Part shown: positions 4,555 through 28,439 of the stretch, in pieces
Layout of the letters: each line of letters opens with the position of its first letter
How positions within the stretch are numbered: the first letter of the stretch is position 1
Assembly: GCA_041671225.1 (NCBI GenBank)
Contig: JBAZBY010000001.1
Coordinates: 763,454-827,453 of the forward strand
Direction: 5' to 3'
Length of the DNA stretch: 64,000 bases
Source: Patescibacteria group bacterium
Lineage (GTDB): Bacteria > Patescibacteriota > Patescibacteriia > JBAZBY01
The notes under the pieces: model-generated
Seen by the model: the letters and a program-made list of their open reading frames with translations, nothing else
Told to the model about the DNA's origin: nothing
Databases searched by the model: none
Position numbers and translations under genes: made by a program

Positions 4555-4761
4555 TAACGACTTATCAACATAAATCCAAGCAGCATGAGACTCGCAAGAA
4601 CGCAGAGACTGATAAGGTGACTATCTTTTGCTAGTGGATTTTCCATGAGAATAGTATAGCGTTTTTTTGTGTCCCCGCAAATGAGAGGGTTTGGTGTCAC
4701 GCTTGCGGCACGTGGCTTTGCTCGCCATGAACCTGAACGAACGGAGTGAGTGAATGGTTTA

Positions 4762-4774
4762 TGGCTCGGGGACA
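4762..4774. repeat. 13-nt direct copy (TGGCTCGGGGACA) of the tRNA-Gln 3' end; candidate distal att/direct repeat of the island
   Basis: Identical to 12127-12139 (the reverse complement of the tRNA 3' terminus including CCA). A chance 13-mer match within 64 kb is unlikely (about 0.002). Confidence 0.55.
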
Positions 4775-4989
4775 ACTTGTCCGCCTCTGGCGGAGGGATT
4801 TATCGCCTCGCCCCGCGCCTAGCGGTGCTCGTTGTCCGGGGCAGCAGTGAACGCTGCGCCAGCTCGCGTTCCCTGATCGCTCGCCGTCGCCACGCCTTCG
4901 GCAAGTGGCTTGGCTCGCTTCTGCCCGGTTCGAATCCTCCATAAACAAAAAAGGTTCTGCCGCCCGCAGACGGGCGCCAAAACCTTTTT

Positions 4990-5177
4990 GGCTCTCTTTA
5001 CTGTGCGCCGCGCGAACCTATTTTGAGACGCAGGAAGGAAAAAACGGGGAAAAATGAAAAAATCTTCTCTTGGAGGGGCGGGGCGGAATTCCCCCCAAAC
5101 CCCCCTTCCGCCCCGCCCCTTTTCTTGGGCGCGAAAATCTGAGAGTACGAAGATCTTTGTTTTACTACCGTCGCTTC
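4990..5177. repeat. 188-bp inverted repeat, arm A (perfect reverse complement of 10276-10463)
   Basis: Verified by direct reverse-complement comparison. It contains the GGGGCGGGGCGGAATTCCCCCCAAACCCCCCTTCCGCCCCGCCCC G-rich palindrome. Confidence 0.9.
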
Positions 5178-5302
5178 ACCCTTCGTGCTTGCTCAGTGCT
5201 TGCTTCGTGTTCGTTCGGTGGTGTCCATGGTAACTCTTTGTGCTTACCCCACCCGCCCTGTGAGCGCGTAAACCCGTCCGCTAACGCGGACGACTCCTTT
5301 AA

Positions 5303-7666
5303 TTAGTATTTTTGATAAATGGTGTTAAAGTCTGTAATTTTTCCTTTAAGCTGTGAAAGGCCGTGGTCGTCGCCCACATCAACATGAGAAGTAGTCCAAT
5401 TACAAAAAGAATATATATTCTTGATCTTATCCAAATCGTCGTCAGAAACTTGCTTATTTGTTTTTATGCCATCTACAACTTTTGGAAAGTCCTGCAATAC
5501 ATCAAGGTGTAGGAGACGGCATTTAATAAAGTTTTCAGTCTCGTATCTTAAATATTGGCCATACTCAACTATTTGAAGTTCAACATCAAAACCATTCTGG
5601 TTTTGTCCAAGTTGCAATAAATGTTCCTCAAAGTTGGTAAGTTTTTCAATGAACCTTTGCGTCATGCTTTTACAAATAAAGCTCCCGCCAAATCTCTTTT
5701 CGTTTCTTAGAATGTTGTATTCAAGTGATTGATCGCGGAATTTTTTGCGCAGAAACTTAAAAAATGTTCTGTGGTGAGTAAAAACAAATGTTTGTGAGAA
5801 TTTGTCTTTTTCAGTAGCAATCAAATCTACCAAGCTACTCAAGTTGCTATCGTCTAAACTTGTAATAGGATCGTCAAAGATAAGAATTTTCTTATCCTCA
5901 TCTTTCTGAATATCAAGGAAGGCAAAAAAGAAGCAGAGTGATAGAACCTGTATCTCGCCTTCCGACAGTCCTTCTTTAAGATCTCTTTCGGTCCCGTCAG
6001 AATCAATGACCCTAAACGCTAAAGGCAACTCTTTTGTAGAACCTGTGTGGCGATTGTCTGTATCAAGTTCTAAAGTAAAACTAAATTTGAAATTGCTAAA
6101 ATAGGATTCAATTTTTCGGAGTGTTTTTTTAAAAGCACCCTTAGCGCAATACTCCTCGTAGGATTCTCTTGCTATTTTGTGGGCTTCTCGTGCCTTCTCA
6201 AGCGACCTTATTAACTTGTTTAATTCTTTTAGTTGTTGGAGTTTGAACTTATTACTTTCAATCTTATTACTATTGATAAACCCCAACTCCCGCTCAATAT
6301 CATTCAAATTTCTTTGATTCTTTTCGATTCTACCAGCTAATTTTTCATCAGTATGCTCCTTTTTGAAATTTCTAATAAGCTTATTCTTGGCTTTTACAAA
6401 GCGCGCAAGTTCTAAAAAATATTTTTTTAGATTACTAAACTCATCTCGCGCCTCGCCAAACAGAATGGATATATCCTCTTTGGTAGGTTTCCCAAGATTA
6501 ACAAGTTTTGTTTTTAACTCGCCGATCTTTTTTAGGGTCGGTAATTTTCTAAAATATTCCTCCTTTTCTATGTCGTAAAGTCCTTTTATGGTATATTGTT
6601 CAACGAGCTTCTTCATTTTGATAAAATAATCGTCCAACTCAAACTCGTTGAGTGCCTCTTGTACTTGTTCCAGCTCTGCTATTAAGGTTTCCTTGTATTT
6701 TTCAAACTGACCCTCCTGCTCCTTATAAGATTCATCATAAATTTGATTGTAAGTTTTGACTATCTGTTTTATTTCTTCCTCTCTATTTTGCGTCCCGCAA
6801 AACGGGCATTGATTTGGGTGTTCATCTCTTACATCAAACCCCATTTCAAAAAATTCTTTATGTTTTTTAATCTGCTCAACCAAACTACGCTCGGCCTCCA
6901 CTTTTGCACGCTCTTTTAGTTTGAAATTAAAAACTTTCTGATAGGAAGTTTTTGAGGAGAGGTTAAACTCGATATCAACTTCCTCTAATTCTTGTATGAC
7001 TTGAACTTCCCTCGTCTTTTGCAAGAGCTGACTATCAAGTTCTAGTTCGTTGGACAAATCCACCCTCTTTTGACCGAGTTCTTCCCTTATGTTCTTAGTA
7101 GTATTTTCGTCCTTTCGTTTATACTTTCTAAAAAGTCTTTCCCCATCTTCATCTAATTCAAAACCAAGAACCCGTTTATTGCTTGTCTTAAAGTCATCAA
7201 GTTTCTGATTTTTCTCCTCCTTTATTCCAGCCAATCTATCCCTAACCTTGCGAAGTTCAATGGCATCGCCGTCAAACTCTATGACGAGGTTTCCGGATTC
7301 TTGCTCCTGTTCACCTTGCTGTGTACCTCGTTCACGGCCAAGATGAACATGCCTATCCACAAATTCCCGGTCAAAAAATAATATAGAATCTTTCGGAATA
7401 TAATCATCCCACTTATCCTCAGTGCGAGTATATTTATACCTCTTACTATCAATCAATACTTGCGCTTCTTCAGGGTAGCATTTAGTAAATTTTTTATTTT
7501 GAGATACGCTTTTAAGAATGTTACAAATTGAACTTTTTCCGCTTCCGTTCTCGCCATATAAAATGTTGGTCTTTTGGTGGAAATTCTCGGTATTAAAAAA
7601 ATTATGCCAAGAAAAATCTTGGAATGATTTATAACTTTTTATCTTCTTGATTTGCTTGAGTTTCAT
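5303..7666 (-). CDS. AAA_13-family ABC-type ATPase with a long coiled coil and Rad50-like CxxC zinc hook (RloC/PrrC-like; candidate anticodon nuclease or defence ATPase)
   Basis: Walker A GENGSGKSS at the N-terminus. A lysine/glutamate-rich coiled coil of about 450 aa has CPFCG at its centre. Walker B ILIFDDPITSLD and the H-loop FTHH follow. A C-terminal extension of about 170 aa contains RLLH. The gene is AT-rich (about 35% GC). Confidence 0.65.
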   Translation of the reverse strand: MKLKQIKKIKSYKSFQDFSWHNFFNTENFHQKTNILYGENGSGKSSICNILKSVSQNKKFTKCYPEEAQVLIDSKRYKYTRTEDKWDDYIPKDSILFFDREFVDRHVHLGRERGTQQGEQEQESGNLVIEFDGDAIELRKVRDRLAGIKEEKNQKLDDFKTSNKRVLGFELDEDGERLFRKYKRKDENTTKNIREELGQKRVDLSNELELDSQLLQKTREVQVIQELEEVDIEFNLSSKTSYQKVFNFKLKERAKVEAERSLVEQIKKHKEFFEMGFDVRDEHPNQCPFCGTQNREEEIKQIVKTYNQIYDESYKEQEGQFEKYKETLIAELEQVQEALNEFELDDYFIKMKKLVEQYTIKGLYDIEKEEYFRKLPTLKKIGELKTKLVNLGKPTKEDISILFGEARDEFSNLKKYFLELARFVKAKNKLIRNFKKEHTDEKLAGRIEKNQRNLNDIERELGFINSNKIESNKFKLQQLKELNKLIRSLEKAREAHKIARESYEEYCAKGAFKKTLRKIESYFSNFKFSFTLELDTDNRHTGSTKELPLAFRVIDSDGTERDLKEGLSEGEIQVLSLCFFFAFLDIQKDEDKKILIFDDPITSLDDSNLSSLVDLIATEKDKFSQTFVFTHHRTFFKFLRKKFRDQSLEYNILRNEKRFGGSFICKSMTQRFIEKLTNFEEHLLQLGQNQNGFDVELQIVEYGQYLRYETENFIKCRLLHLDVLQDFPKVVDGIKTNKQVSDDDLDKIKNIYSFCNWTTSHVDVGDDHGLSQLKGKITDFNTIYQKY

Positions 7667-7692
7667 CTTCCGGTCATGGCAAGGACGTCTTG

Positions 7693-8862
7693 TTACCGAT
7701 TTCCTTTTGCTCTATTGTGTGTTTTACACAGCATCTCACAATTCTTCGCCGAAGTAGCACCGCCCTTGCTCCACGCTGATACATGGTCTGCTTCCATTTC
7801 GCCAAAACCCCAAATCTTGCTTTTGTTAGCATCATGCCCAACGGCGCAAAGCGAGCAGTTTGACTTCTCTTTGGTTTCAGCCTCTTTGGTTTGTTTAGCA
7901 TAAACAGATCGTTTGGTCGCCTCATCAAAAAATCGGACATCTAGCAATTTTGTATCAACGGAGCCACCGAGAATGTATTCAAAAATGCCTCTGCGATTTT
8001 TGATATACGGATCACCATAGAGCTTATGCACCTCAGCCGATACTTTGGCTGGGTTATATGATTTTTTGTGATACTCCCCGTAAAGTCGTCCCCATTCAAG
8101 CCCGCGCATTTCGCTTTCTACGTCGGTAAATACGCCAGATACCCAATCAATGACGGTGTTAAAGTATTTTTTCAGCTCATCAATGTTTTTGTCTTTGCGA
8201 TGCTTGCTCATGTAATCGCCAATATTGCCTTTGCTAACCCAATCCAAAGCACATTCCAAAAATTCCTGTCGGTTCGCACTACCGGATACATATGCGCTCC
8301 ATTTTTGAATGTTGGCGTTTTGGCTATTGCTAAATTCTTCTTTAGCCCTAGTTACGAATGGACCGGAATACACGGCGTTGAGTAACTCCTGATTATTAAG
8401 TGGAACACCAGCAATATTTATGGTCTTGAACCATTCTTTTATCTGACTCTCTGTTCCTTCACATTCGTAAATGAGTAGTTTCGTTTCCAAAATCTTGGCT
8501 TGTTTGTCTTTTGCCATGCCACCAAAGTATTGTTCCATGCCATTTTCGTCCTTGATGGCAAATTTGTCCGTGATAAATCGTCCGAGACTTGTGATGCGCT
8601 GTTGTCCATCTAAAACTTCTAGGTTGTCGGCGGAGACGATATTAAAATAAATCAATCCGATTGGGTATCCCTTGAGAACTGATTCGATGACGGCCATTTC
8701 TCTTTTTCCGCCATCAGATGCATAAATATAATTTCGTTGATACTCCGGTTGGATGGTAAGCTTGCCAGACAAGCCAAACAGACCCTTACCCTCAAGTTCG
8801 TTATAGACAAATCCGTCACAGATCTCTTGAACAGTTACATTGGTTTTTAGGGTTGTTTTCAT
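7693..8862 (-). CDS. DUF262 (ParB-like NTPase/nuclease) domain fused to a C-terminal HNH nuclease; GmrSD-like type IV restriction enzyme candidate
   Basis: The N-terminal DGQQR motif ([13 protein letters not shown]) is typical of DUF262. The C-terminal HNH motif is CSLCAVGHD...[11 protein letters not shown]...[15 protein letters not shown]. Confidence 0.7.
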
Positions 8863-8863
8863 A

Positions 8864-9991
8864 TTATTTCTTTTTAATAAATATCCGCTTGAATTTGGTT
8901 TTTCCGTTTATTATGCAATGAGGATTTTTGCCGTCCCAAATGCCGCCAGAAAAGCCCTTTCCGTTATCTTCTGCCATTCCGACAATTTCAAATTGTTCAG
9001 GATTATATTTGTCCAAATAACTAATTGGCACACCCATCACACCTTCATAATCACTTGGGATGGCGTCGGTAAACGGCACTTCTATTGCATTATAATTGTC
9101 ATATTTATAATATGTTTTTTCGCCTTTAATCTCTTTGTGTCTACTGTATTTCAAATTTTCTTCCATTGTCATAAGTGGTAATGGTTGATGACGTCTTCCG
9201 TGATCAAGATTAGTGAGCCATAAACAGCTATTAGTAGCAACAATTCTATCCCCATTTTCATCTATTCGCGCTTCTGTTCCAAATAATTCGTAAGATTTGG
9301 GTACAATAAACCCAGAAATCCATCTTCCCATTCCATTACCAAGCCATATTTCATTATTTCTAATTTTTGGGAAAACTTCTTTATATGTTATGCAATTAAT
9401 ATTGCCGATTATCAAAAACTTTTTTTTGTGTTCAAAAAGTTGCTTAACATACTCACGGAACAAACTAAACGGCGGATTGGTTACCACAATATCAGACTGT
9501 TTCAGTAATGCTATACATTCGGGACTTCTGAAGTCACCATCTTCCTCAAGGGGCATCCATTCGTTGTTTTTGTTTTCCTTTAACTGTTTGGCAACATCTT
9601 TCAGATTGAACTCGCCATCGCCGTCTATGTCGTGCACTTCGTTTATAATGAATGTATTGGCAGTTATCTTTGGACGGCCTTTTGCATTTACAAGCGTTTT
9701 GTCATCACCAAATAATCCCAGTTGCGTGTTGGCGACAGGCGATGGTTTGTAGCTCGTTGTGATTAGCTGTTTCAGTCCAAGTCTGTTGAAATTGAGAACA
9801 AAATAACGGAAGAAATTACTCTCAAATGGATCGTCGCAGTTGCAATACACAACTTTAGCTCGAAATGTATTAGGGTTGTAATCTAAATACTTCTCAATTT
9901 CTTTCTGAATATCGCCATATTGAGTATAAAACTCATCGTTCTTTGCTCGTTTCGCATTTGTAAGATTTTTGACTGATGCTTCTCTAGCCAT
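8864..9991 (-). CDS. putative DNA N6-adenine/N4-cytosine amino-methyltransferase (NPPF catalytic motif)
   Basis: [12 protein letters not shown] matches motif IV (D/N)PP(Y/F). The upstream [11 protein letters not shown] resembles a degenerate motif I. It lies 1 nt from the DUF262-HNH gene on the same strand. Confidence 0.55.
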
Positions 9992-9995
9992 AAAT

Positions 9996-10244
9996 TTACC
10001 TCAAAAGCTCGTCGCTCGTTACTCCCAACGCTTGAGCTATTTTCTCAATGGTGGCAAGCGTGGGGTTGCCTTTGCCCGATTCAATATTGCTCATTTGAGC
10101 ACGATCAAGCCCTACCGCACGGCAAACGTCGCCTTGCGACATTTCCTTTTGCTCGCGTATGCGCTTGATATTTTTACCAAGTCTGGACGTTGGGGTTCTT
10201 ATATTCACAGATGTAATATAGCCAGATATTGTGTCGTATGACAA
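9996..10244 (-). CDS. XRE-family helix-turn-helix transcriptional regulator (controller-like)
   Basis: LGKNIKRIREQKEMSQGDVCRAVGLDRAQMSNIESGKGNPTLATIEKIAQALGVTSDELL is a canonical HTH_XRE domain. It is the first gene of the minus-strand cassette. Confidence 0.75.
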   Translation of the reverse strand: MSYDTISGYITSVNIRTPTSRLGKNIKRIREQKEMSQGDVCRAVGLDRAQMSNIESGKGNPTLATIEKIAQALGVTSDELLR

Positions 10245-10275
10245 TAATGTGTTATATTACAAGTATGCTGAAATC

Positions 10276-10463
10276 GAAGCGACGGTAGTAAAACAAAGAT
10301 CTTCGTACTCTCAGATTTTCGCGCCCAAGAAAAGGGGCGGGGCGGAAGGGGGGTTTGGGGGGAATTCCGCCCCGCCCCTCCAAGAGAAGATTTTTTCATT
10401 TTTCCCCGTTTTTTCCTTCCTGCGTCTCAAAATAGGTTCGCGCGGCGCACAGTAAAGAGAGCC
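10276..10463. repeat. 188-bp inverted repeat, arm A' (reverse complement of 4990-5177)
   Basis: Perfect match over 188 bp. The likely promoter region of the HTH gene lies inside this arm. Confidence 0.9.
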
Positions 10464-10531
10464 AGCTCATACTTCTGGAATTTTCCGCCAAAATTTTCCA
10501 CGGCTTTTCCCAAGTCCACAGGGGCTTTCTG
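10459..10531. repeat. 73-bp inverted repeat, arm B (reverse complement of 12060-12132), with an imperfect extension to about 10557
   Basis: Verified by reverse-complement comparison. It shares the 5-nt GGCTC core (10459-10463) with arm A'. Confidence 0.85.
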
Positions 10532-10677
10532 CCAAGGAGGAGGCGGTTCGTGGCACGGAACGTGCCACCAAGGAATTTCTAAAAAACACATATTAGAAAT
10601 TTCTTGGTTCCAATGTTTTCCACGTTTCCGCCAAAGGCGGAAAGACGAAGCAAGATTTATTCTTCTGGCGAATCCCT

Positions 10678-12159
10678 ATGACATATTTCCTCTACGCAAG
10701 AAAATCCAGCGAGGACGAAGAACGCCAAGTGATGTCCATAGAGGCACAGCTTGTTGAATTGGAACAATTTGCAAAACGTGAGAACCTCACGATTGCCAAG
10801 CAGTTTGTGGAGAGTAAAAGTGCAAAAGCACCCGGCCGCGAAGTGTTCAACCACATGCTTTCCGCAATCTACAAAAGCAAGGAACCCGTTGGCATTCTTG
10901 CGTGGCATCCGGATCGTCTCGCGCGCAATTCCGTTGACGGCGGCCAAATCATTTATCTCGTTGATACTGGGAAGGTCATTGCGCTCAAGTTCCCGACATT
11001 TTGGTTTGAACCAACGCCGCAAGGATTGTTCATGTTGCAGGTGGCATTCGGGCAATCGAAATACTATTCAGACAACTTGTCCGAGAACGTAAAACGCGGG
11101 ATTCGCCAGAAGCTCCGCAAAGGAGAATGGCCCGGCCCTGCGCCGTTCGGATATGTGAATAATCGAAACACGCATAGTATTGATCCGGATCCGGTGAAAG
11201 CAAAAATCGTCCGGCGTATCTTTGAGGAGTATGCAACCGGAGAATACAACCTCCGCACGATTGGAGAACACTTTGCACTCTGGGGCGTGGTGAGCGCGTC
11301 CGGCAAACCTTTGGCAAAATCCACCCTGAAGCATCTGCTTACGCACCAAGCATATATTGGAACGATTATTTGGAGTGGTGAGCCGTATGAAGGTTCATTC
11401 CCGCCGTTGGTGCCAAAGGACGTGTTTGAGACCGTCCAGCACGTCATAAAAAGCCAAGAGAAGCGCAGGTACGTCCGCCGGAAGCATGATTTCTCATTCC
11501 TTGGCCTATTCCGCTGTGGAGAATGCGGCGGGGCGATTACGGCTCAACTTGCCAAGGGAAACGGCGGCACATACCGCTATTATCGTTGCACCAAAAAGTT
11601 TGGCCTGTGTAAACAGGGTTACATTCAGGAAAGTGATTTTGCAGTGCTTTTGAGAAAGGAAGTTAATCGTGTTGCGATTAACGAGCAGTGCGCCTCGCGC
11701 ATGCTTGAACAAGTGAAACTGTGGGAACGTGAAGAAAACGTTGATGGCGAAAAACATACGCGCGAAAGAAAAACGAAGTTGGAAGTGATTGACCAAAAAC
11801 TTGATACCCTCGTTAACGCCTTTCTTGAAGGTACGTTAGAAAAGGAAACCTACCTCAAAAAGAAAGCCGAACTAATTGACGCCAAAGCTGGCCTTCGGGA
11901 AGAAAAGGTATCTTTACAAGCGCGAGGCGCACAATGGATCGAACCACTACGAAACTGGATAAACCGCGCTCACCACGCCCAAAATCTTGCTTCGTCTGAT
12001 GATTTGAGCAAACTCAAATCATTCGTGGAAAACATTGGAACGAACCGCCTCCTCCTCGACAGAAAGCCCCTGTGGACTTGGGAAAAGCCGTGGAAAATTT
12101 TGGCGGAAAATTCCAGAAGTATGAGCTGGCTCGGGGACAGGGATTCGAACCCCGATTGA
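10678..12159 (+). CDS. large serine recombinase (integrase/resolvase family)
   Basis: The N-terminal resolvase catalytic domain is YARKSSEDEERQVMSIEAQ...AWHPDRLARN. A recombinase domain and a zinc ribbon (CGECGG...YYRCTKKFGLC) follow, then a C-terminal coiled coil. The last 33 nt overlap the tRNA 3' end and the att arm, so the true stop may lie earlier. Confidence 0.85.
   Translation: MTYFLYARKSSEDEERQVMSIEAQLVELEQFAKRENLTIAKQFVESKSAKAPGREVFNHMLSAIYKSKEPVGILAWHPDRLARNSVDGGQIIYLVDTGKVIALKFPTFWFEPTPQGLFMLQVAFGQSKYYSDNLSENVKRGIRQKLRKGEWPGPAPFGYVNNRNTHSIDPDPVKAKIVRRIFEEYATGEYNLRTIGEHFALWGVVSASGKPLAKSTLKHLLTHQAYIGTIIWSGEPYEGSFPPLVPKDVFETVQHVIKSQEKRRYVRRKHDFSFLGLFRCGECGGAITAQLAKGNGGTYRYYRCTKKFGLCKQGYIQESDFAVLLRKEVNRVAINEQCASRMLEQVKLWEREENVDGEKHTRERKTKLEVIDQKLDTLVNAFLEGTLEKETYLKKKAELIDAKAGLREEKVSLQARGAQWIEPLRNWINRAHHAQNLASSDDLSKLKSFVENIGTNRLLLDRKPLWTWEKPWKILAENSRSMSWLGDRDSNPD
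12060..12132. repeat. 73-bp inverted repeat, arm B'; abuts and includes the last 5 nt of tRNA-Gln
   Basis: Perfect reverse complement of 10459-10531. An imperfect extension runs from 12033 to 12059. Confidence 0.85.
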
Positions 12160-12200
12160 CGGCGCCAAAGGCCGCTGTCCTACCATTAGACGATCCCCGA
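12127..12200 (-). tRNA. tRNA-Gln (anticodon UUG), 74 nt including encoded CCA
   Basis: The reverse complement reads TCGGGGA-TC-GTCTAATGGTAGGAC-A-GCGGC-CTTTGGC-GCCGT-CAAT-CGGGG-TTCGAAT-CCCTG-TCCCCGA-G-CCA. The 7-bp acceptor stem and a GGTTCGAATCC T-arm are present, and the anticodon loop CUUUGGC gives anticodon UUG. Confidence 0.8.
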
Positions 12201-12337
12201 ATGGATCTCGCCAGCGAGCATACCAAACGCGTGCAGCAGTGTAAAGTGCATTTGACGGGGCATTCTATCCAAACTAGGATGCAAACATTCGGCATTTTCG
12301 CCGACGCTCTGTCACATTCCTGAAAGGGGCCATTACC

Positions 12338-15456: not shown

Positions 15457-15635
15457 ACCTTTTGCCCGCGCAACAGACTCATTGTTTTGCATCTGCCAGA
15501 GCCGCAAGAAGAGGTTTTTTGGGTATTGACATACGCGATAAGAAGTGTAGTGTCCTATTGCAGTTTACGCGCAATCCCGTCCAAAGGGGTTGATTTCAAT
15601 GCCCTTTGACAGGTGAAAAACCTGGAGAAGGGGGG

Positions 15636-17786
15636 ATGCTAACCATGAGGAGAAACGGCATGAGACGGAACGTGAAGTTCTCTATGCTCATCGCAGCGGC
15701 GGCCATCTTGCTGGCAGCTGCTACGGCGAGTGCCACGACATATGTTGTGAAACCTGACGGCACGGGGGACTACCCCACCATCCAGGCGGCGATCGCGGCT
15801 GTCGCCAACGGCAGCATCATCGAGCTCACCGACGGCACCTTCATTGGTGCCGGCAATCGTGACATCGACTTCGCGGGAAAGGCGATCACAGTCCGTTCCC
15901 AAAGCGGGAACGCGGAAGCCTGTGTTATTGATTGCCAGGGGTCGATGTCTACGCCTTACATCGGAGTCTACTTCGACTCTGGTGAGGGCGTGAACTCCAA
16001 GCTGGCCGATATCAAGATAATCAACGGTTTCAGCAGTTTCACCTATCAGCCGTTGGCGATCTACGTGTATAGCGCTGGCCCAACGATTGACGGATGTGTC
16101 TTCGTGGACAACGGGATCTATGTCTCTGGGTATGCGAGTCCGCAGTTCGTGCGGAACACATTCCGGGACTTCAACTCGGGCGGGATGATGCAGCCTCCGA
16201 TTTCCGTGACGAACACAAGCTCAAGCGTGGCAACGTTGACCATCGAGGACAATGTGTTCAAGGACTGCACATTCGGTGGCCAGTACTCGTCTGGGACAGC
16301 GATCTCGGTGAGCGGGACGGGGTCGGCCACCAACACTGCCTACATCAGACGCAACGTCTTCGAAAATCTCAACGGAACCGCAGTCGCTCTAGGTGGAACC
16401 GGCGATGTCACGGTCTGGGGTCATCTCGACGACAACGTCATCAAGGCGTGCGGCAACTCGATGATGTCCACTCCGGCCGTAAGCATTTCTACCAACAGTA
16501 CCTCGGACACCCACATGCTTATGTCAGGCAACGTCTTCGTTGACTGCCAGTCAGCCGCCATCAAGACCTGGGGGTACAACCCCAACATCTGGGTAGCGGT
16601 TGATTCCACGACCATTACAGGTTGTGATGCTGGGATCATCAAGGGTACCGCGGTGGCGTCGCTGGCCATCAGCCACACCATCCTGTGGAACACCGATGAC
16701 CTGAACGGCGTGCTGTCGTCCGAAGTCAGCTGTTCCGATATCGGCAACGGCGACTTCCTCGGCGTGAACGGTAACTTCAGTGACGATCCGATGTTCTGCG
16801 ACGCAGCGAACGGAGACTTCCAGATCAACGTTAAGTCGTCGTGCGTCACTGGGTACGGTTGCGGGTTGGTCGGTGCTCTGGGGGTTGGCTGCGATGTCGT
16901 GATCACCGAGGTCAAGGACATCCCGAACGATCAAGGACGGCGTGTGCTTGGTACGTGGCTGGCGGCTTTTGCCGATACTGGCAGCGTGTCCGAGTACACC
17001 ATCTGGGGAAAGTACGAGTACAGTGCCAAGGGTGACCTCACCACGCTCTCGTATCCGCCCGGCACGTGGTACTACGTCATGACTGTCCCGGCTTGCGAGG
17101 AGAGTGTGTACAGTGCAGTATGGCCGACGCTGGCAGATTCGAATGCGGCCGGCATGCAGTACAGCACGTTCTTCGTGAGAGCCAAGATCGGGAACTCGTA
17201 TCTGGATTCGGATCCTGCTTCTGGCTACTCGGTGGACAATCTTCCGCCCAGCGTCCCGGGAGGATTCGCTGGGGAGTTCGATGCCGGCTTGACGGTTCTG
17301 ACGTGGGATGAGGCCCTGGAGGGGGATTTCAACCACTACAAGGTCTACAGCGGGTCGAGCGCCGACTTCATCCCCGGGCCCGGCAACCTGCTGGGTGCGG
17401 TGATTGAACCGACGTTCTCTGATGCCAGTTGGGGGCTGTATTACAAGGTGAGCGTCGTGGACTTCAACGGCAACGAGAGCGCCTTCGCGCTCTTGAGGCC
17501 GGAAGAAGTCACAGGCGTGAAGGAGACCGGCGCGGTACCGGTGATGGCGCTTGCGCCGCTCACCAATCCGCTCCGGGGGCAGATGTCCCTCTCGTTCTCA
17601 CTCGCCTCGGACCTGCCGGGGGAGATCGTCGTCTATGATCTCGCCGGACGTCGCGTGGCCGGGAAGCGGGTCTCGGGTGCCGGTGCGCAGACGATGTCCT
17701 TCGGCGACTTGCCGTCGGGTATCTACTGGGCACGCCTTACCCAAGGCGTGGCCCAGGTGACGGCCAAGGTGGTCGTCATCCAGTAG
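15636..17786 (+). CDS. secreted right-handed parallel beta-helix protein with a C-terminal FlgD-Ig/T9SS-type sorting domain
   Basis: SD GGAGAAGGGGGG precedes the ATG at 15636. The signal peptide is MLIAAAAILLAAATASA. Repetitive beta-helix-like G/N/T-rich segments follow. The C-terminal tail EIVVYDLAGRRVAGKRV...LPSGIYWARL...AKVVVIQ is the sorting domain. GC is about 62%. Confidence 0.6.
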   Translation: MLTMRRNGMRRNVKFSMLIAAAAILLAAATASATTYVVKPDGTGDYPTIQAAIAAVANGSIIELTDGTFIGAGNRDIDFAGKAITVRSQSGNAEACVIDCQGSMSTPYIGVYFDSGEGVNSKLADIKIINGFSSFTYQPLAIYVYSAGPTIDGCVFVDNGIYVSGYASPQFVRNTFRDFNSGGMMQPPISVTNTSSSVATLTIEDNVFKDCTFGGQYSSGTAISVSGTGSATNTAYIRRNVFENLNGTAVALGGTGDVTVWGHLDDNVIKACGNSMMSTPAVSISTNSTSDTHMLMSGNVFVDCQSAAIKTWGYNPNIWVAVDSTTITGCDAGIIKGTAVASLAISHTILWNTDDLNGVLSSEVSCSDIGNGDFLGVNGNFSDDPMFCDAANGDFQINVKSSCVTGYGCGLVGALGVGCDVVITEVKDIPNDQGRRVLGTWLAAFADTGSVSEYTIWGKYEYSAKGDLTTLSYPPGTWYYVMTVPACEESVYSAVWPTLADSNAAGMQYSTFFVRAKIGNSYLDSDPASGYSVDNLPPSVPGGFAGEFDAGLTVLTWDEALEGDFNHYKVYSGSSADFIPGPGNLLGAVIEPTFSDASWGLYYKVSVVDFNGNESAFALLRPEEVTGVKETGAVPVMALAPLTNPLRGQMSLSFSLASDLPGEIVVYDLAGRRVAGKRVSGAGAQTMSFGDLPSGIYWARLTQGVAQVTAKVVVIQ

Positions 17787-21946: not shown

Positions 21947-22014
21947 TCCCTCTGTCACCCTGAGGTTTCTTGCTCTGTCATTCCCGCGAAAGCGGGAATC
22001 CAGGAGTTGATTTT
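21947..22014. repeat. interspersed palindromic repeat element
   Basis: ctctgtcaccctgagg...ctctgtcattcccgcgaaagcgggaatccaggagttgatttta. Confidence 0.7.
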
Positions 22015-22041
22015 AGCCGGAAAATGAAGGATGATGAAGCA

Positions 22042-22785
22042 ATGAACGGTACACGGATCATATCACAGGAGCGGCGCAAATTTATTTCCCCAATGTTCCT
22101 GTTAATATTCATACAGGGGCTGCGGTTTCTCGTTGACGCACAGTATATCTGGGCGGGTCTGCTCATGGCCGCTGGCGTGCTTGGGTATATTGCATACAGA
22201 ATATATTGGAAGGATGCAGAGCCACATTTGCTGCAACAGATCGCACAGCAGTACCACCTCACCGTGCACCAAACGCCCTCGGTTCCAGAGGCCTGGCGAG
22301 AAACAGTCCTCATGACAACGCTGCGTCCGCGGAAAATGTATACGGCCGAAGGCACCATCGAGGGGCACGCTGTTGTGCTCGGTTTTGTGATGGGAACCCA
22401 TGAGAAACGTTCGTTGCTCAGCCGTAAGGTGCAATGGCGCGAGGATTTTTATATCGGCATACGGATCGCACAGGATATTGCGGGATGGCTCGTCGTGGAT
22501 CAGGGCATCCGTGATATTCAAGGCATGGGGACGCGCGTGCAATTGGAAAGTAATGACCTGCACAAGAAGGTGAGCGTTCTTGTTTCAAGTCCACCGCTTG
22601 CCCCGCACATCCTGGACCCGAACGCGATGGCGCTGCTGCTCGATTGGGAATTCTTGCCGGACGTTGAGATTCGGGATTCGCTCGTACTCCTGCGTCTGGA
22701 AATTTCCCGCTATCACCATCGCAAACTGGACTTCCATATCCACAACGCCCTCCGCCTTGCCGCGCAGGTCGAGCGGAATGTGTAG
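22042..22785 (+). CDS. hypothetical membrane protein
   Basis: N-terminal TM helices (FLLIFIQGLRFLV..., WAGLLMAAGVLGYIAY) are present. The listed ORF start at 21970 lies inside a repeat element, so the true start is probably further downstream. Confidence 0.4.
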   Translation: MNGTRIISQERRKFISPMFLLIFIQGLRFLVDAQYIWAGLLMAAGVLGYIAYRIYWKDAEPHLLQQIAQQYHLTVHQTPSVPEAWRETVLMTTLRPRKMYTAEGTIEGHAVVLGFVMGTHEKRSLLSRKVQWREDFYIGIRIAQDIAGWLVVDQGIRDIQGMGTRVQLESNDLHKKVSVLVSSPPLAPHILDPNAMALLLDWEFLPDVEIRDSLVLLRLEISRYHHRKLDFHIHNALRLAAQVERNV

Positions 22786-23835: not shown

Positions 23836-23898
23836 CCTCTCTGTCATTCCTCCCACTTGTCATTCCCGCGCATGCGGGAATCCAGGAGTTGATTTTGT
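23836..23898. repeat. interspersed palindromic repeat element
   Basis: tctctgtcattcctcccacttgtcattcccgcgcatgcgggaatccaggagttgatttt. Confidence 0.7.
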
Positions 23899-23905
23899 CT
23901 GCGCA

Positions 23906-24523
23906 ATGTTAGATGATGTCCCCATGCACACACCCATCACCGCCGCCATCTTTGATCTCAACGGCGTCTTTATCGTGAGTCCAAAACTGTCCGACCGCTT
24001 TGCGGAAGTCTATGGCGTGCCGCAGGAACAATTCCTGCCCGCCTTGCAGCATGTGCTGGATGTTGCGCGCATGCCGAATGCCGGCAGCAGCTTCGCACTC
24101 TGGAAGCCATATCTGGACCAATGGCATGTTGAACTTTCTGAGCAGGCGTTCTTCGATTTCTGGTTCTCAGCAGAGCAGGAGAACACGGCCATGATAGCGC
24201 TTGCGCGGGAATTAAAGGATCGTGGTATGCGGCTATTTGTGCTTTCCAATAACTTCCGCGAGCGCACGGAGTATTACCGCAGCCACTTCCCATTCCTCGC
24301 AGAATTGTTCACGTTTATATATTTTTCTTGGGAGCAGGGGTATGTGAAGCCGGACCCGCGTGCCTGGGAATGGCTCATCCAGAACACCGGCGTGGTTCCC
24401 AACGAGACACTGTATATGGATGACAAAGAGGAGAATTGCACCGTGGCGGCGAGTTTGGGTTTTTCGGTATTGGGAGCGATGGATACAGAGGAAATTCGGA
24501 AAGTGGTGGGGATTGAGGGTTGA
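23906..24523 (+). CDS. HAD-superfamily hydrolase
   Basis: AAIFDLNGVFIV is motif I. The listed ORF start (23777) lies inside the repeat element, so the ATG at 23906 (MLDDVPM) is preferred. Confidence 0.6.
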   Translation: MLDDVPMHTPITAAIFDLNGVFIVSPKLSDRFAEVYGVPQEQFLPALQHVLDVARMPNAGSSFALWKPYLDQWHVELSEQAFFDFWFSAEQENTAMIALARELKDRGMRLFVLSNNFRERTEYYRSHFPFLAELFTFIYFSWEQGYVKPDPRAWEWLIQNTGVVPNETLYMDDKEENCTVAASLGFSVLGAMDTEEIRKVVGIEG

Positions 24524-25335: not shown

Positions 25336-25935
25336 TTTATGACTGAGGTCTATTCACTTATTAAGGGAGTTGTAAAGAAGATTCGCGATGGACTTTTTTT
25401 GGCATCTAGTAGGACGACCGGGGAACAATACATAGAACCCTTTATTCGCAAGAAATATAATCTTAAAGATCCGACGGGCAATGACTATGATGGGATGGAT
25501 CAAGCGGGAAAAAAATACGAGATTAAGACGTGCAAAGTTTTAAGGGAGACAGGAAACGACAAAAAAACAAAATCCATTCTAGATCGTATACTTTTTGAAA
25601 GTACAAATTTAGAAACGAAAAGGCTCGTGGTTTTTAGGGACCGCGAAACGGCAAAGTACTTAGCAAATGTTCAAAACGTCAAGAGGGATCATTTTGATTA
25701 TCTCATCTACGTTTTACTATTTGCGGACTGTGTGAAAATATTTTGGGCCAAGAGGGAAGAGATTAACACCAAAGATTTTTCTCGTTGGAGTGACAAGCAT
25801 GGTCGCTATGATGCACTTGGTAAGAGTGGTCAATTTGGGATAGATAAAAACAATATATGGTGGCATCTGCAGAATCATCTCAAAGACACTGTATCCTATG
25901 ATGAAATGAGAAAAGTGTATACTGAGCTCTCCTAA
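25321..25935 (+). CDS. putative type II restriction endonuclease (PD-(D/E)xK-like), cognate of the downstream methyltransferase
   Basis: A small AT-rich ORF joined to the methyltransferase by a TAATG junction. The candidate catalytic motif is D(YDGMD)...KYEIKTCK. Confidence 0.4.
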   Translation: MGDDGFMTEVYSLIKGVVKKIRDGLFLASSRTTGEQYIEPFIRKKYNLKDPTGNDYDGMDQAGKKYEIKTCKVLRETGNDKKTKSILDRILFESTNLETKRLVVFRDRETAKYLANVQNVKRDHFDYLIYVLLFADCVKIFWAKREEINTKDFSRWSDKHGRYDALGKSGQFGIDKNNIWWHLQNHLKDTVSYDEMRKVYTELS

Positions 25936-27572
25936 TGAATGGTGTGATCGCGAGAAATACCACCATACAAAATCGCTCAAAACAACAAAGGCTAAGTTCT
26001 GAGCACGTCATTCCTTTTCAGAATGTAAAGGGAGTTGGAGTTGTAAGTTTTTTGCAGTCTTTGAATTTTTTCACTAAGCCAAAGGAGCAAATTTTATTCT
26101 CGATTGGTTGCCATTTGCTAAAAAAAAATAGAAATCCCGCAGTGAGGAAATTTTTAGCAGAGTACGATTATGAAATTCTCGATATCCAAAATATACCCGA
26201 GAATACATTTGATCTTTTGGGTTCGATCTATCAGTTTCTCAACACAAAGAAGGAGAACTTAGAGAAGGGATCATTTTATACTGGCTCTGAAATAGCAAAG
26301 GATTTTGTTAATGATCTGGATTTTTCCTCCGGGCAGATCATTTTTGATCCTGCATGCGGATCTGGTTCATTCCTATTTAATTCCAATGCACCTGCTGAGC
26401 AAATAGTTGGAGTTGACTCTGATCCTATTGCCATCATGATTGCAAAATTTAACTACTTCATTAAGTTTCCCAGATCCCAAGAGCCAAGGCTATTCTGCTA
26501 TGATTTTTTTGATTGGTTTCCCGACAACCGTAAAATAAAATTCGATTATGTTATTAGTAATCCGCCATACGGCGCAAACCTAGATCTGTCTAGAATTCCA
26601 ACTCAATTTGTATCGTCAGGAGAAAGTTTTTCGTATTTCATTGAGTTTGGATATCAACTTCTGAAGAGCGGAGGAGTATTGAGATTTTTATTGCCAGAGG
26701 CAATTTTGAATGTAAAGCGACATACAGATATAAGAGACTTTATACTCGATCAGACTAACTTAAGGAAGATAAAAAGATATTCAAAGAAGTTTTCGGGAGT
26801 AATGTCTGATGTGTATATGATAGAGCTTGATCGTGGCCATGGCCACAAGATGTTATTTATTAATGATGTGACAACAGTCATACCAAAGAAAATATTTAGG
26901 GATTTTAAAAATCACATTCTTGTTCATTTAAATGAACAAGACATAACGATCATCGAGAAGGTGGATCGACTTAAGAGACATGATCTTTCAAATAGTATTT
27001 TTGGGTTAGGAGTGGTGACTGGCGATAATATGTCTAAACTTCTGGACAAGAGAATACCGGGCTCGGAGCCCATCTATACAGGAAAAGAGGTTAATAAGTA
27101 TAAGTTACTCACGCCCAGAAATTATCTGGTTTTTGATAGGGAGAAATTACAGCAGGTTGCTCCTGATGAAATATACAGAGCACCAAAGAAATTAGTGTAC
27201 AAGACAATCAATAAATTTTTGAAGGTTGCTCTCGATACGACGCGATCTCTAACAACAAATAGTGCCAACATAGTGATTCCAAGGGTTCCGGAGTTAGATA
27301 TTTATGTGCTGATGGCATTTTTGAATTCTGACCTTTACTCTTATCTAAATTTAAAGTTATTTGGTGGTGTTAACAAAATCGCAAAAGAAAATCTAATGGC
27401 ATTGCCCTTCCCAGGTATTTCAAAAACAGAGAATACCGTGATTAAAAATCTAGTCAAAGATGCTATCAAGAAAGGAAATGATGAATATCTGCAAAAGTAC
27501 ATTAATAAGAAAATTTTTAAGTTATCTGAACGAGAGATTGCTTATATTAAAGGTTTTGTAACAAAAAAATAA
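25935..27572 (+). CDS. N6-adenine DNA methyltransferase, gamma class (type II R-M)
   Basis: Motif I is IFDPACGSGSFLF and motif IV is VISNPPYG. The C-terminal half is a large target-recognition domain. GC is about 33%. Confidence 0.8.
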   Translation: MNGVIARNTTIQNRSKQQRLSSEHVIPFQNVKGVGVVSFLQSLNFFTKPKEQILFSIGCHLLKKNRNPAVRKFLAEYDYEILDIQNIPENTFDLLGSIYQFLNTKKENLEKGSFYTGSEIAKDFVNDLDFSSGQIIFDPACGSGSFLFNSNAPAEQIVGVDSDPIAIMIAKFNYFIKFPRSQEPRLFCYDFFDWFPDNRKIKFDYVISNPPYGANLDLSRIPTQFVSSGESFSYFIEFGYQLLKSGGVLRFLLPEAILNVKRHTDIRDFILDQTNLRKIKRYSKKFSGVMSDVYMIELDRGHGHKMLFINDVTTVIPKKIFRDFKNHILVHLNEQDITIIEKVDRLKRHDLSNSIFGLGVVTGDNMSKLLDKRIPGSEPIYTGKEVNKYKLLTPRNYLVFDREKLQQVAPDEIYRAPKKLVYKTINKFLKVALDTTRSLTTNSANIVIPRVPELDIYVLMAFLNSDLYSYLNLKLFGGVNKIAKENLMALPFPGISKTENTVIKNLVKDAIKKGNDEYLQKYINKKIFKLSEREIAYIKGFVTKK

Positions 27573-27580
27573 TAATTTTC

Positions 27581-27609
27581 TTGACGCCCCTTCCAGCGGA
27601 GCGTATGGT
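27581..27609 (+). promoter_or_regulatory. sigma70-type promoter with a palindromic operator in the spacer (ACGCCCC-N7-GGAGCGT)
   Basis: TTGACG, a 17-nt spacer, then TATGGT. Near-identical to 28369-28397. Confidence 0.55.
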
Positions 27610-27652
27610 TGTAATATTGTAGGAGTAATTGTTAATATCCAAAGAATTCACC

Positions 27653-27925
27653 ATGAGATGCTACATTCTCACATATGAGAATAAGTCAGGGTTTGATGAG
27701 GCACGATTGATTCAGACGATCAAGGATTATGGAACCTGGGCTCACATAAATGGAAATGCCTGGGCATTTTTAAGTGATAAACCTGCATCTCAGCTTCGTG
27801 ATGAATTTAGGGCCATGGTCAACGAAAGCGATAGCGTTTTTGTTATAAAGACGGGCGTTGAGGCAGCTTGGTCAAATACACACGCTGAATCAAGCTGGTT
27901 ACGCAAATACCTTTTGTATGGTTGA
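27653..27925 (+). CDS. hypothetical small cytoplasmic protein (candidate sensor or regulator of a two-gene module)
   Basis: A 90-aa ORF downstream of the promoter/operator at 27581-27609. It overlaps the next gene by 8 nt. Confidence 0.45.
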   Translation: MRCYILTYENKSGFDEARLIQTIKDYGTWAHINGNAWAFLSDKPASQLRDEFRAMVNESDSVFVIKTGVEAAWSNTHAESSWLRKYLLYG

Positions 27926-28313
27926 GCAAGGAGAAAAAAATCCAGAATCCCAACCACACATTGTCCGGGCATCACTAGACGAAATTGTTGTTTATGATGT
28001 TACAGAGGATGAACTCGACATACTTGAAAATGGTTCACCTAGCTCGCAATACCTGAATTTTGCTTTATTTGCCCTTTCCAGTTTCCTTTCCTTTCTCGCC
28101 GTTTTGCTGACGGTTACAATTGAATTGGACAGAATTTTCATGGTGTTTATTGTGGTTACCATTGTGTCGGGGGCTGCCGGAGCCATTTTTGGAATTCTTT
28201 GGTTTCATAATCGGGTATCAGTAAATAAAATGACCGCTAGAATTCGTAAACGTAAAAGAATACCCGAAGCTCAGGATAGTAGTGGTCAACAGATCAACGT
28301 AACCACTAAATGA
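27918..28313 (+). CDS. hypothetical small membrane protein (2 TM)
   Basis: The ATG at 27918 is in frame with the listed ORF. The TM helices are FALFALSSFLSFLAVLLTV and MVFIVVTIVSGAAGAIFGILWF. Confidence 0.45.
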   Translation: MVEQGEKNPESQPHIVRASLDEIVVYDVTEDELDILENGSPSSQYLNFALFALSSFLSFLAVLLTVTIELDRIFMVFIVVTIVSGAAGAIFGILWFHNRVSVNKMTARIRKRKRIPEAQDSSGQQINVTTK

Positions 28314-28368
28314 TAGGGCTTGTAGCTTCGGAATTCTAAGCCCCTCTGGCACTCTGGAAAAACTTTTC

Positions 28369-28397
28369 TTGACGCCCCTCCTCTCGGGGCGTATGGT
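28369..28397 (+). promoter_or_regulatory. sigma70-type promoter with a perfect palindromic operator (ACGCCCC-N7-GGGGCGT)
   Basis: TTGACG, a 17-nt spacer, then TATGGT. Upstream of the HEPN-like gene. Confidence 0.55.
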
Positions 28398-28439
28398 TGT
28401 GTTTGGATATACATGGAATACAAATTAGTTTGATACTTC

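Follow-up and report, generated by a model that had tools for sequence, protein, structure and literature searches.

The locus studied here raises the question of which enzyme placed a cassette of defence genes at the 3' end of a tRNA gene, and where this insertion begins and ends. It lies in a 64-kb window (the whole stretch of DNA analysed) on the 1.03-Mb contig JBAZBY010000001.1 of a Patescibacteria group bacterium. A tRNA-Gln gene in this window has its last 13 nt repeated some distance away, with copies at 4762-4774 and 12127-12139, and between the two copies lie the cassette and a gene for a large serine recombinase (LSR), a class of enzymes of which it was stated in 2020 that they are not known to target tRNA genes (PMC7192596). 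The original prediction proposed an integrative island at the tRNA-Gln 3' end, and this is supported by the junctions, the repeats and the pattern found in a wider family. The segment 4989-12132 is very probably an integrated 7.1-kb island mobilised by the LSR, from a family which inserts at the extreme 3' end of tRNA genes. Between its two ends the island carries a complete inverted copy of its own attachment site attP. This copy may be a flip switch for the recombinase gene or a single-strand splint.

The tRNA-Gln(UUG) gene (12127-12200, minus strand) is intact and was recognised by ARAGORN, which reports tRNA-Gln(ttg) as the sole tRNA of the window, and by Rfam (60.4 bits). The last 13 nt of the gene, CCA included, read TGGCTCGGGGACA in reverse complement, and the window has exactly two occurrences of this 13-mer, at the two positions given above and both on the plus strand, so that the predicted tRNA and its repeat were recovered by ARAGORN, Rfam and exact matching. 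The LSR gene occupies 10678-12159 on the plus strand and encodes 493 amino acids in its integrated form and 505 in its attP form, with the Pfam domains Resolvase, Recombinase and Zn_ribbon_recom (PF00239, PF07508 and PF13408) all above cut-off; S10 of the catalytic region is invariant in 26 LSR homologues. As had been proposed, it is the only recombinase between the two copies: no tyrosine recombinase domain (Phage_integrase) was found in the Pfam-scanned open reading frames (ORFs) between 4762 and 12139.

Two long inverted repeats, which the original prediction had missed, were exposed by aligning contigs of the same organism from other assemblies to the window. The first, I1 (4989-5177 and 10276-10464, 189 nt, 100% identical), brackets the cargo, and the second, I2 (10459-10551 and 12040-12132, 93 nt, 98% identical), brackets the LSR gene; these are the sole inverted repeats of at least 40 nt across the 64 kb. 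They overlap by 6 nt at 10459-10464 (GAGCCA), and their outer ends read TGGCTC, corresponding to the terminal 6 nt of the tRNA. This core is found at three junctions, at 4989, at 10459 in inverted orientation and at 12127, and identity breaks exactly there. If the core is called O, the 3' coding end of the LSR gene (12040-12126) X, the segment 4995-5177 Y, the segment 4945-4988 B and the tRNA body B', the order of the locus is B-O-Y, cargo, Y'-O'-X', LSR, X-O-B'. The three sites are referred to as S1 (attL), S2 (the inverted attP copy) and S3 (attR).

In S1 the core at 4989-4994 (plus strand) is the outer end of I1 and matches the last 6 nt of the tRNA. It is preceded in B by an intrinsic terminator on the minus strand (4945-4988), a hairpin of -32.1 kcal/mol followed by TTTTTTG. 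It is followed by Y (plus strand), the left copy of the P' arm of attP and an arm of I1, which contains the displaced last 20 LSR codons with their stop (4995-5057), within them a mimic of the tRNA T loop, CGAACC, at 5013-5018, and then a GC hairpin terminator (5072-5122) with a T run. S2 (10276-10551, minus strand) is made up of Y' (10276-10458), the core GAGCCA (10459-10464) and X2' (10465-10551), which terminates in GGTTCGT at 10545-10551. In S3, X (plus strand) is the P arm of attP and the right arm of the repeat flanking the LSR gene. It starts at the Thr codon of an invariant GGA-ACGAACC (12037-12046) and runs into the core at 12127-12132 (plus strand), the reverse complement of the G-A-G-CCA end of the tRNA. 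As S2 lies between the cargo and the LSR gene, both modules are bracketed by long near-perfect inverted repeats.

These junctions are the ones expected from an ordinary LSR reaction, in which an attP reading X-TGGCTC-Y would recombine with an attB reading terminator-TGGCTC-tRNA body to give attL at 4989 and attR at 12127. Integration would keep the tRNA, and would shift the tRNA terminator, the tail of the LSR and the LSR terminator to attL. Integration at the CCA end by attP x attB is strongly indicated, and with the crossover placed in TGGCTC, where all three junctions meet exactly, the newer inner element at 4990-12132 that had been suspected agrees with the present limits. The empty allele would read ...AACCTTTT-TGGCTC-GGGGACAGGG..., and the attR junction of the integrated form LSR-body-X-TGGCTC-GGGGACA. 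In the rebuilt empty site the CCA end of the tRNA is followed at once by the hairpin of -32 kcal/mol and its T run, which on sequence grounds resembles a native tRNA terminator.

A consequence of this arrangement, also missed originally, is that the recombinase gene itself is altered by integration. In the window the LSR frame extends through O and 33 nt into the tRNA, ending with ...SWL-GDRDSNPD and a stop, and when it is read across X-O-Y it ends with ...SWL-SLLCAARTYFETQEGKNGEK and a stop, giving 505 amino acids, with a 17-bp GC hairpin terminator next. As attP lies within the LSR gene, integration swaps the last 20 codons and the terminator for eight codons antisense to the tRNA. The displaced codons include a conserved tail, xLLNxxRTxFE, and now lie at attL, 7 kb away. 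The C-termini of the 120 best LSR homologues (54-62% identical) are nearly all of two kinds, either a read-through of the reverse-complemented tRNA that begins with a Trp codon, CCA giving TGG on the opposite strand, or the xLLNxxRTxFE tail. In this tail the Leu codons vary synonymously, which argues for selection on the protein, and the Arg codon is always CGA, which argues for selection on the DNA. An AlphaFold model of the LSR has long helices at 336-383 and 389-417, and its confident fold ends with a helix at 443-453, pLDDT being below 50 at 455-461 and 473-493. With the fold ending at 453, X would encode a flexible extension in which DNA constraints can dominate.

The copy of this 3' end in S2 was also considered as a small independent gene; its frame is open and it is an in-frame 3' fragment, but it has no start codon in the window and the idea was dropped. 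Between S2 and the LSR gene, the upstream region 10552-10677 (plus strand) contains a decayed inverted copy of about LSR codons 435-454, split by about 52 nt. This interruption (10552-10603) holds two small palindromes, GGCACGGAACGTGCC and GAAATTTCTAA...TTAGAAATTTC, which may be operator or promoter elements; GGAACG, with which the invariant motif begins, lies in the first of them.

What identifies S2 as an attachment site is its relation to the T loop of the tRNA. When 30 S2 sites from the family were aligned on the tRNA end, Y proved to be conserved as TGGnnn..tTGAACgaaGCtCGAACCtATTTTGAG, the CGAAC starting at +24 in Y as against +19 in the T loop of the tRNA arm. The shift of (C/T)GAAC between Y and the T loop is exactly 5 bp in 28 of 29 loci and is seen in the right half-sites only. 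For LSRs it is a rule that the distance of the DBD2 motif from the centre is 5 bp shorter in attB than in attP (PMC11722253). Judged by sequence, the 5-bp offset of the T-loop mimic is this LSR attP/attB signature and S2 is a true attP; the T loop of the tRNA-Gln, TCGAACC on the plus strand at 12145-12151, would then be the DBD2 motif of the B' arm. Use of the T loop as recognition element explains how one family can use so many tRNAs.

The breadth of this family was assessed by a genome scan with an LSR alignment in one-genome-per-species data, which gave at least 581 loci, of which the best 80 (LSRs 50-62% identical to the window LSR) were kept for counting. Their hosts are mostly lineages of Patescibacteria together with Omnitrophota, and further Bacteroidota, Ignavibacteria, Planctomycetia and other groups. 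In 61 of the 80 loci a tRNA lies on the opposite strand at the LSR 3' end. At least 13 types of tRNA are targeted, Pro being the commonest, with Gln, Trp, Arg, Ala, Ser, Leu, Lys, Phe, His, Asp, Ile and others. The original prediction regarded a serine recombinase at a tRNA end as anomalous and had not recognised that targeting of tRNA ends is the norm in this family. In 69 of the 80 the LSR gene is closely preceded by an inverted copy of its own 3' end, and only four loci with enough flanking sequence are without it. The full three-site layout was found in 15 loci with sufficiently long upstream sequence, enclosing 1.1-8.9 kb of cargo, and in most of these the two repeats abut with a core overlap of 3-9 nt. 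The arms measure 92-203 nt for X and 145-435 nt for Y, and most short-read contigs of the family end within these repeats. The cargo of the relatives includes ApaLI-like, HinfI, type I and type III restriction-modification (R-M) systems, Fic proteins, OLD-like ATPases and occasional metabolic genes.

A phage or plasmid origin of the family was considered and rejected, as only two partial matches were obtained in 2.9 million viral contigs (IMG/VR) and annotated phages and plasmids gave at most 28% identity. No description of the family or of its layout was found in the literature, within an incomplete coverage that makes this absence of evidence only; the family, a large one, is apparently undescribed. 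Two members depart from the common arrangement. In L033 (940-2937) two distinct tRNA-Pro genes (GGG and CGG) in inverted orientation enclose the LSR module, and its arms are only 81% identical. Recombination of the internal attP with a second tRNA gene would be expected to leave such a product, giving a chromosomal rearrangement or a cassette exchange. The other, L087 (9185-11528), has no inverted attP and carries a direct 50-nt copy of X-core about 770 nt upstream of the LSR; by its contig_ name it is probably from a long-read assembly, and it resembles a minimal LSR-only element or a tandem junction.

With the family at hand the 13-nt repeat, on which the proposal of an island had been built, can be placed. 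The repeat is real and unlikely to be due to chance: for another exact 13-mer that is anchored at the end of the tRNA the expectation is estimated at roughly 0.002-0.01 per window, and with up to one mismatch allowed shuffled sequences contained a mean of 0.10 matches, two being reached in 1 of 100 shuffles. It could in principle bound a tyrosine-type tRNA island from 4762 to 12139 with the LSR as a passenger, for which the empty allele would be ...GGTTTA-TGGCTCGGGGACA-GGGATTCG...; the contigs of three data sets, which end with a last k-mer start of 4760 or 4761, would fit such a boundary. That explanation is very unlikely, given the lack of a tyrosine recombinase domain in the scanned ORFs between the repeats, the LSR junctions which fix 4989 and 12132 to the base, the native-looking terminator that abuts the core at 4989, and the absence of the outer tRNA-end copy in 13 of the 15 relatives with a mapped attL.

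The copy at 4762-4774 (plus strand, exact match) lies 227 nt outside the attL of the LSR element and, as far as its sequence tells, is probably the scar of an earlier event at the tRNA-Gln, external to the present element; its source may have been the same LSR family, a tyrosine-integrase island or a host feature. That 4762-4988 is an older remnant is plausible. This segment has 64% GC, its part at 4775-4944 is non-coding, and it yielded no structured RNA with Rfam (E up to 1) and no tRNA or tmRNA with ARAGORN. It holds an 11-nt inverted copy of the T arm of the tRNA (GGTTCGAATCC, 4927-4937), and an exact look-up of a 55-amino acid ORF at 4777-4944 returned no record. A comparable layout around an outer copy exists in the Saccharibacteria locus L011, which has the same tRNA-Gln(UUG) as target and an LSR 59% identical: there an 18-nt copy of the tRNA end lies 176 nt left of attL, accompanied by an inverted piece of the T arm, and the segment shows weak similarity (z of about 4.6) to 4762-4988 of the window.

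In the three short-read data sets the last k-mer of the flanking contig starts at 4760 or 4761 with k=31 and k=141 alike, from which it follows that at least 140 nt rightward from 4762 are also present in a second context. One short-read contig starts at 12174, and the tRNA up to 12203 is thus likewise present in a second context in those samples. This second context of either segment may come from a paralogous locus, from a variant strain or from an empty site with other flanks; the contigs that end or start around 4760-4901 and 12174-12204 are L003, L004, L005 and L001. Just left of the remnant, at 4648-4554 on the minus strand, there is a likely gene for a hydrophobic peptide of 31 amino acids (MENPLAKDSHLISLCVLASLMLLGFMLISR) with a TATACT box upstream, which gene callers had stretched to 73-78 amino acids across the 13-nt repeat.

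Inverted repeats of this kind might be an accident of the genome or of its assembly, arising from nested head-to-head elements or a fold-back artefact and having no function. The attL junction is seen in the window only, and the Y arms (189 nt) exceed the k of short-read assemblies, both of which speak for such an origin. The order S2-LSR-tRNA-radical SAM, however, is the same in three assemblies, the window and two further contigs (L002 and L007, an NCBI contig of a metagenome-assembled genome and a MEGAHIT contig), and as the X arm (93 nt) is shorter than k=141 the assembly of this stretch did not have to be guessed. Contig L006, which holds the cargo, runs out in Y at both sides, as is expected for a 189-nt repeat. 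Moreover the repeat at the LSR recurs in 69 of the 80 loci and the full layout in 15, across many phyla and assemblers and including the contig_-named L011 and L087, which their record names mark as probably long-read, and the inner boundary is conserved to the nucleotide with arms that co-vary. An accident is on these grounds largely refuted already and is the least probable of the explanations considered.

Over the last 60 nt of X, S2 and attR are identical by a median of 100% within an element and of 30% between elements, and in the related pairs L011/L066 and L081/L085 each difference is mirrored in both arms. In spite of the variable arm length, 25 of 30 loci have the inner repeat edge 0-2 nt from the Thr codon of KIG-TNRRLL. 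The DNA at this edge, GGAACGAACC, is invariant (GGA in 69 of 77, ACG in 68 or TCG in 9 of 77, AAC in 76 of 77), shows no synonymous variation and, as (A/T)CGAACC, is again a T-loop mimic. From these sequence comparisons the arms of the repeats are maintained and not relics.

What are they maintained for? The locus has the parts expected of an inversion switch, namely I1 around the cargo, I2 around the LSR gene and a recombinase encoded on the spot. The repeats provided by S2 would let the LSR module invert, either through RecA acting on arms of 93-200 nt or through the LSR acting at the cores. Inversion would rejoin the LSR gene to its native tail and terminator, and the gene, at present antisense to the tRNA promoter, would come to lie behind this promoter in sense. 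A circle or the flipped form would carry LSR-body-X-TGGCTC-TCTTTACTG, and the flipped form in addition tRNA-GAGCCA-X2'-promoter. No candidate for a directionality factor was found, the genes of the element being the LSR gene and four otherwise assigned cargo genes, though such factors have no common signature and absence is therefore unproven; no transfer or replication genes are among them either. Inversion at S2 may thus serve as a rare OFF-to-ON switch for an element without a directionality-factor gene, a proposal that we regard as tentative. Tandem insertion, integration in the wrong orientation and inversion at pairs of sites were tried as origins of the layout and rejected, none of them yielding three sites from an element with one attP; the three-site layout is itself unchanged by inversion at either repeat.

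A number of observations weigh against the integrated island as set out here or against its flipping. No empty site, excised circle or flipped form was seen in the collections searched. A search of metagenomes for an empty site with the radical-SAM neighbour gave only relatives of 52-54% identity without a tRNA, in a protein search for a close relative of the host the best radical-SAM homologue was 75% identical and lay on a contig of 1.7 kb, and exact look-ups of ftsX, radical SAM, LSR and methylase returned only contigs of the same organism, broken at the repeats. The host is without close relatives in these collections, which would account for the missing empty allele. The attL junction at 4989 is covered by the window alone, short-read contigs stopping at 4790 or 4901. 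The left arms X and B do not mirror the CGAAC motif and show no clear dyad symmetry, and the crossover dinucleotide could not be fixed. The 90% cluster of the window LSR contains the tRNA-fused form only and no protein of the attP form. With regard to flipping in particular, about nine loci have short unambiguous arms (92-94 nt) and all of them have the LSR 3' end at the tRNA, so that the flipped form, if it occurs, is a minority state. Proteins with the attP tail come from long-arm elements with ambiguous contig paths; they were considered as proof of a flipped or free form and set aside, as two of them (L093 and L094) start inside X' at k=126-127 and the path remains ambiguous. Canonical LSRs do not recombine attP with attL or attR, and a flip has no need for long identity in the Y arm.

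The length of the arms is the point from which another explanation, a close variant of the flip, departs. S2 may act as a splint, pairing with both ends of the single-stranded island, X-O at the right and Y at the left, and joining them into a precise circle, so that attP and the full LSR gene would be restored without an excision reaction or a directionality factor. The island would travel single-stranded by natural transformation or conjugation, and removal of flaps and ligation would be followed by synthesis of the second strand. Base for base and without a break, S2 is the reverse complement of the junction X-O-Y, its arms are far beyond the need of an LSR site and are kept perfectly complementary, and the lack of a directionality-factor candidate or a transfer gene among the genes of the element fits, as does the near-absence of the family from viral contigs, annotated phages and plasmids. 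The hosts are mostly Patescibacteria, some of which are naturally transformable. The splint would on the other hand require nucleases, ligase and complementary-strand synthesis of the host, it leaves the invariant GGAACGAACC at the arm edge unexplained, and to our knowledge the mechanism is without precedent. It is considered rather unlikely.

The position of S2 between the divergent LSR gene and cargo suggests instead an operator. Bound by the LSR at attP and at the GGTTCGT motif beside the LSR promoter, it would autoregulate the LSR gene and the divergent cargo operon in the manner of Tn3 res and, as a terminator, would keep transcription that starts at the tRNA promoter out of the cargo. 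The cargo ORFs all face away from S2 in 11 of 15 relatives, the Y part has a strong hairpin followed by a T run, and the invariant T-loop mimic lies 15-223 nt from the LSR start codon. An operator would not need arms of 90-435 nt that are 100% identical to attL and attR, however, nor an open in-frame copy of the LSR 3' end, and a mainly regulatory role is unlikely.

Equally unlikely is a role of S2 as a second working attP. Here the element would form a circle resembling the yeast 2-micron plasmid, split by its inverted sites into a recombinase half and a cargo half, and would integrate by either copy, or by both between two inverted tRNA genes. No sequence feature of an attP is missing from S2, and the arrangement of L033 with its arms of 81% identity matches the outcome of S2 meeting a second attB. 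Against this, the element has no replication genes, LSRs do not normally recombine attP with attP, the arms are again longer than needed, and unambiguous loci show one orientation only.

The cargo consists of four genes on the minus strand. The first gene of the operon encodes a C-protein-like helix-turn-helix controller (9996-10244; PADLOC Control_protein 5e-16, Pfam) and is followed by an EcoRI-like N6-adenine DNA methyltransferase (8864-9991; Pfam EcoRI_methylase 6.1e-128, PADLOC MTase_II 1.1e-115), a candidate type II restriction endonuclease (7693-8862; GmrSD_N and HNH in Pfam, PADLOC REase_II 2.8e-80 over its full length) and an ATPase of 787 amino acids of the AAA_13/PDC-S06/LmuB-like kind (5303-7666; Pfam and PADLOC). 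The genes for C-protein, methyltransferase and endonuclease adjoin, and by domain assignment the cargo is a type II R-M system of the C-M-R order with an additional ATPase, so that the AT-rich cassette is a defence cassette as had been predicted. Its GC content (5178-10275) is 0.384, ranging from 0.34 to 0.44 in 500-nt windows, close to the 35% originally given; that of the LSR gene is 0.489. For the flanks 50-62% had been claimed, to which the values on the left (0.479) and on the right (0.568) are close.

Some further features of the window are recorded here. A second AT-rich block at 25900-29700 (GC about 0.37 as compared with 0.49 for the window) encodes a TaqI/Eco57I-like N6-adenine methyltransferase (25935-27572) and contains three ORFs without Pfam match; it has no recombinase or tRNA nearby and resembles another R-M-like islet. 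A promoter-like repeat of 42 nt (TTGACGCCCC...TATGGTTGT) occurs at 27571 and 28359, and a direct repeat of 72 nt, 78% identical, at 21976-22047 and 23858-23929 starts with a GC hairpin (TGTCATTCCCGCGAAAGCGGGAATCC), resembling a repetitive extragenic palindrome or a shared regulatory element. At 15606-17786 and in the gene tables of L001 and L002 there are proteins with the type IX secretion sorting domain (Por_Secre_tail) and an FG-GAP/NAGPA protein. Such proteins are unusual for a genome labelled as Patescibacteria group bacterium, and the right flank has 57% GC as compared with 49% overall; the taxonomic label of the genome or the origin of the right flank may deserve a check.

Among known systems the serine integrases of phages and integrative and conjugative elements (phiC31, Bxb1, A118/LI, SPbeta SprA) are the closest. 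They share the Resolvase and Recombinase domains, the zinc ribbon with coiled coil, a short core common to attP and attB, the 5-bp DBD2 rule and a gene adjoining attP, and the SPbeta integrase is the nearest solved structure (E=2.5e-14). The window LSR differs from them in sharing only about 24-28% identity with any LSR annotated in phages or plasmids, in reading the tRNA 3' end by way of the T loop, in having attP inside its frame, in the absence of a directionality-factor candidate and in the conserved internal inverted attP. The cassettes of SCCmec, moved by the LSRs CcrA, CcrB and CcrC, likewise carry cargo to the 3' end of a conserved gene (rlmH), and the best NCBIfam matches of the window LSR are CcrB and CcrA; membership is excluded by the scores of 76 and 73 bits, far below the cut-offs of 900 and 700, and target, size and architecture differ.

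The SSV1-type archaeal integrases also have attP inside the int gene, so that integration changes the gene product. These are tyrosine recombinases, however, and their gene is cut into two large parts, whereas here only a tail of 20 codons and the terminator are swapped and a spare inverted 3' end is kept. Tyrosine-integrase tRNA islands of the Islander type and tycheposons are similar as small cargo islands at tRNA 3' ends which restore the tRNA, carry defence genes and have a displaced tRNA-end fragment nearby, and a few tycheposons use LSRs (bioRxiv 10.1101/2020.12.28.424599). The present element is distinguished from them by a crossover at the CCA end, a core of 3-9 nt, three sites, and the lack of a tyrosine recombinase and a replication module. 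In hsdS invertons, the G and C segments of phages Mu and P1 and shufflons, an inverted repeat is common to the gene that is expressed and to a partial copy of its 3' part in inverted orientation, the C-terminus would be swapped by inversion and the recombinase is encoded at the locus; in the present case the switched gene is the recombinase itself, the repeat ends in the att core, and both orientations were not seen. The yeast 2-micron plasmid, with FLP and FRT sites in inverted repeats of 599 bp, resembles the predicted circle in its identical long inverted repeats that each contain a site, but FLP is a tyrosine recombinase and the plasmid replicates, whereas no replication function or free circle was seen here.

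Targeting of tRNA T loops, a recombinase gene that contains attP, a conserved inverted attP whose arms co-evolve and an invariant motif at the arm edge look like new features for serine integrases. The current model of LSR directionality does not account for the conserved inverted attP, its co-varying arms and the motif in the recombinase gene that is fixed in its DNA sequence, and these point to an untested control or bypass of excision; the splint, if true, would be a new mobility logic for serine-recombinase elements in which no directionality factor is needed. Serine integrases are the main tools for the insertion of large DNA and their targets are usually idiosyncratic. The explicit rule found here, the same motif shifted by 5 bp, suggests that integration sites may be made portable or retargetable for uncultured lineages such as Patescibacteria. 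For the biology of these organisms, the islets of this family seem to be a main vehicle for R-M systems and other defence genes in bacteria with small genomes.

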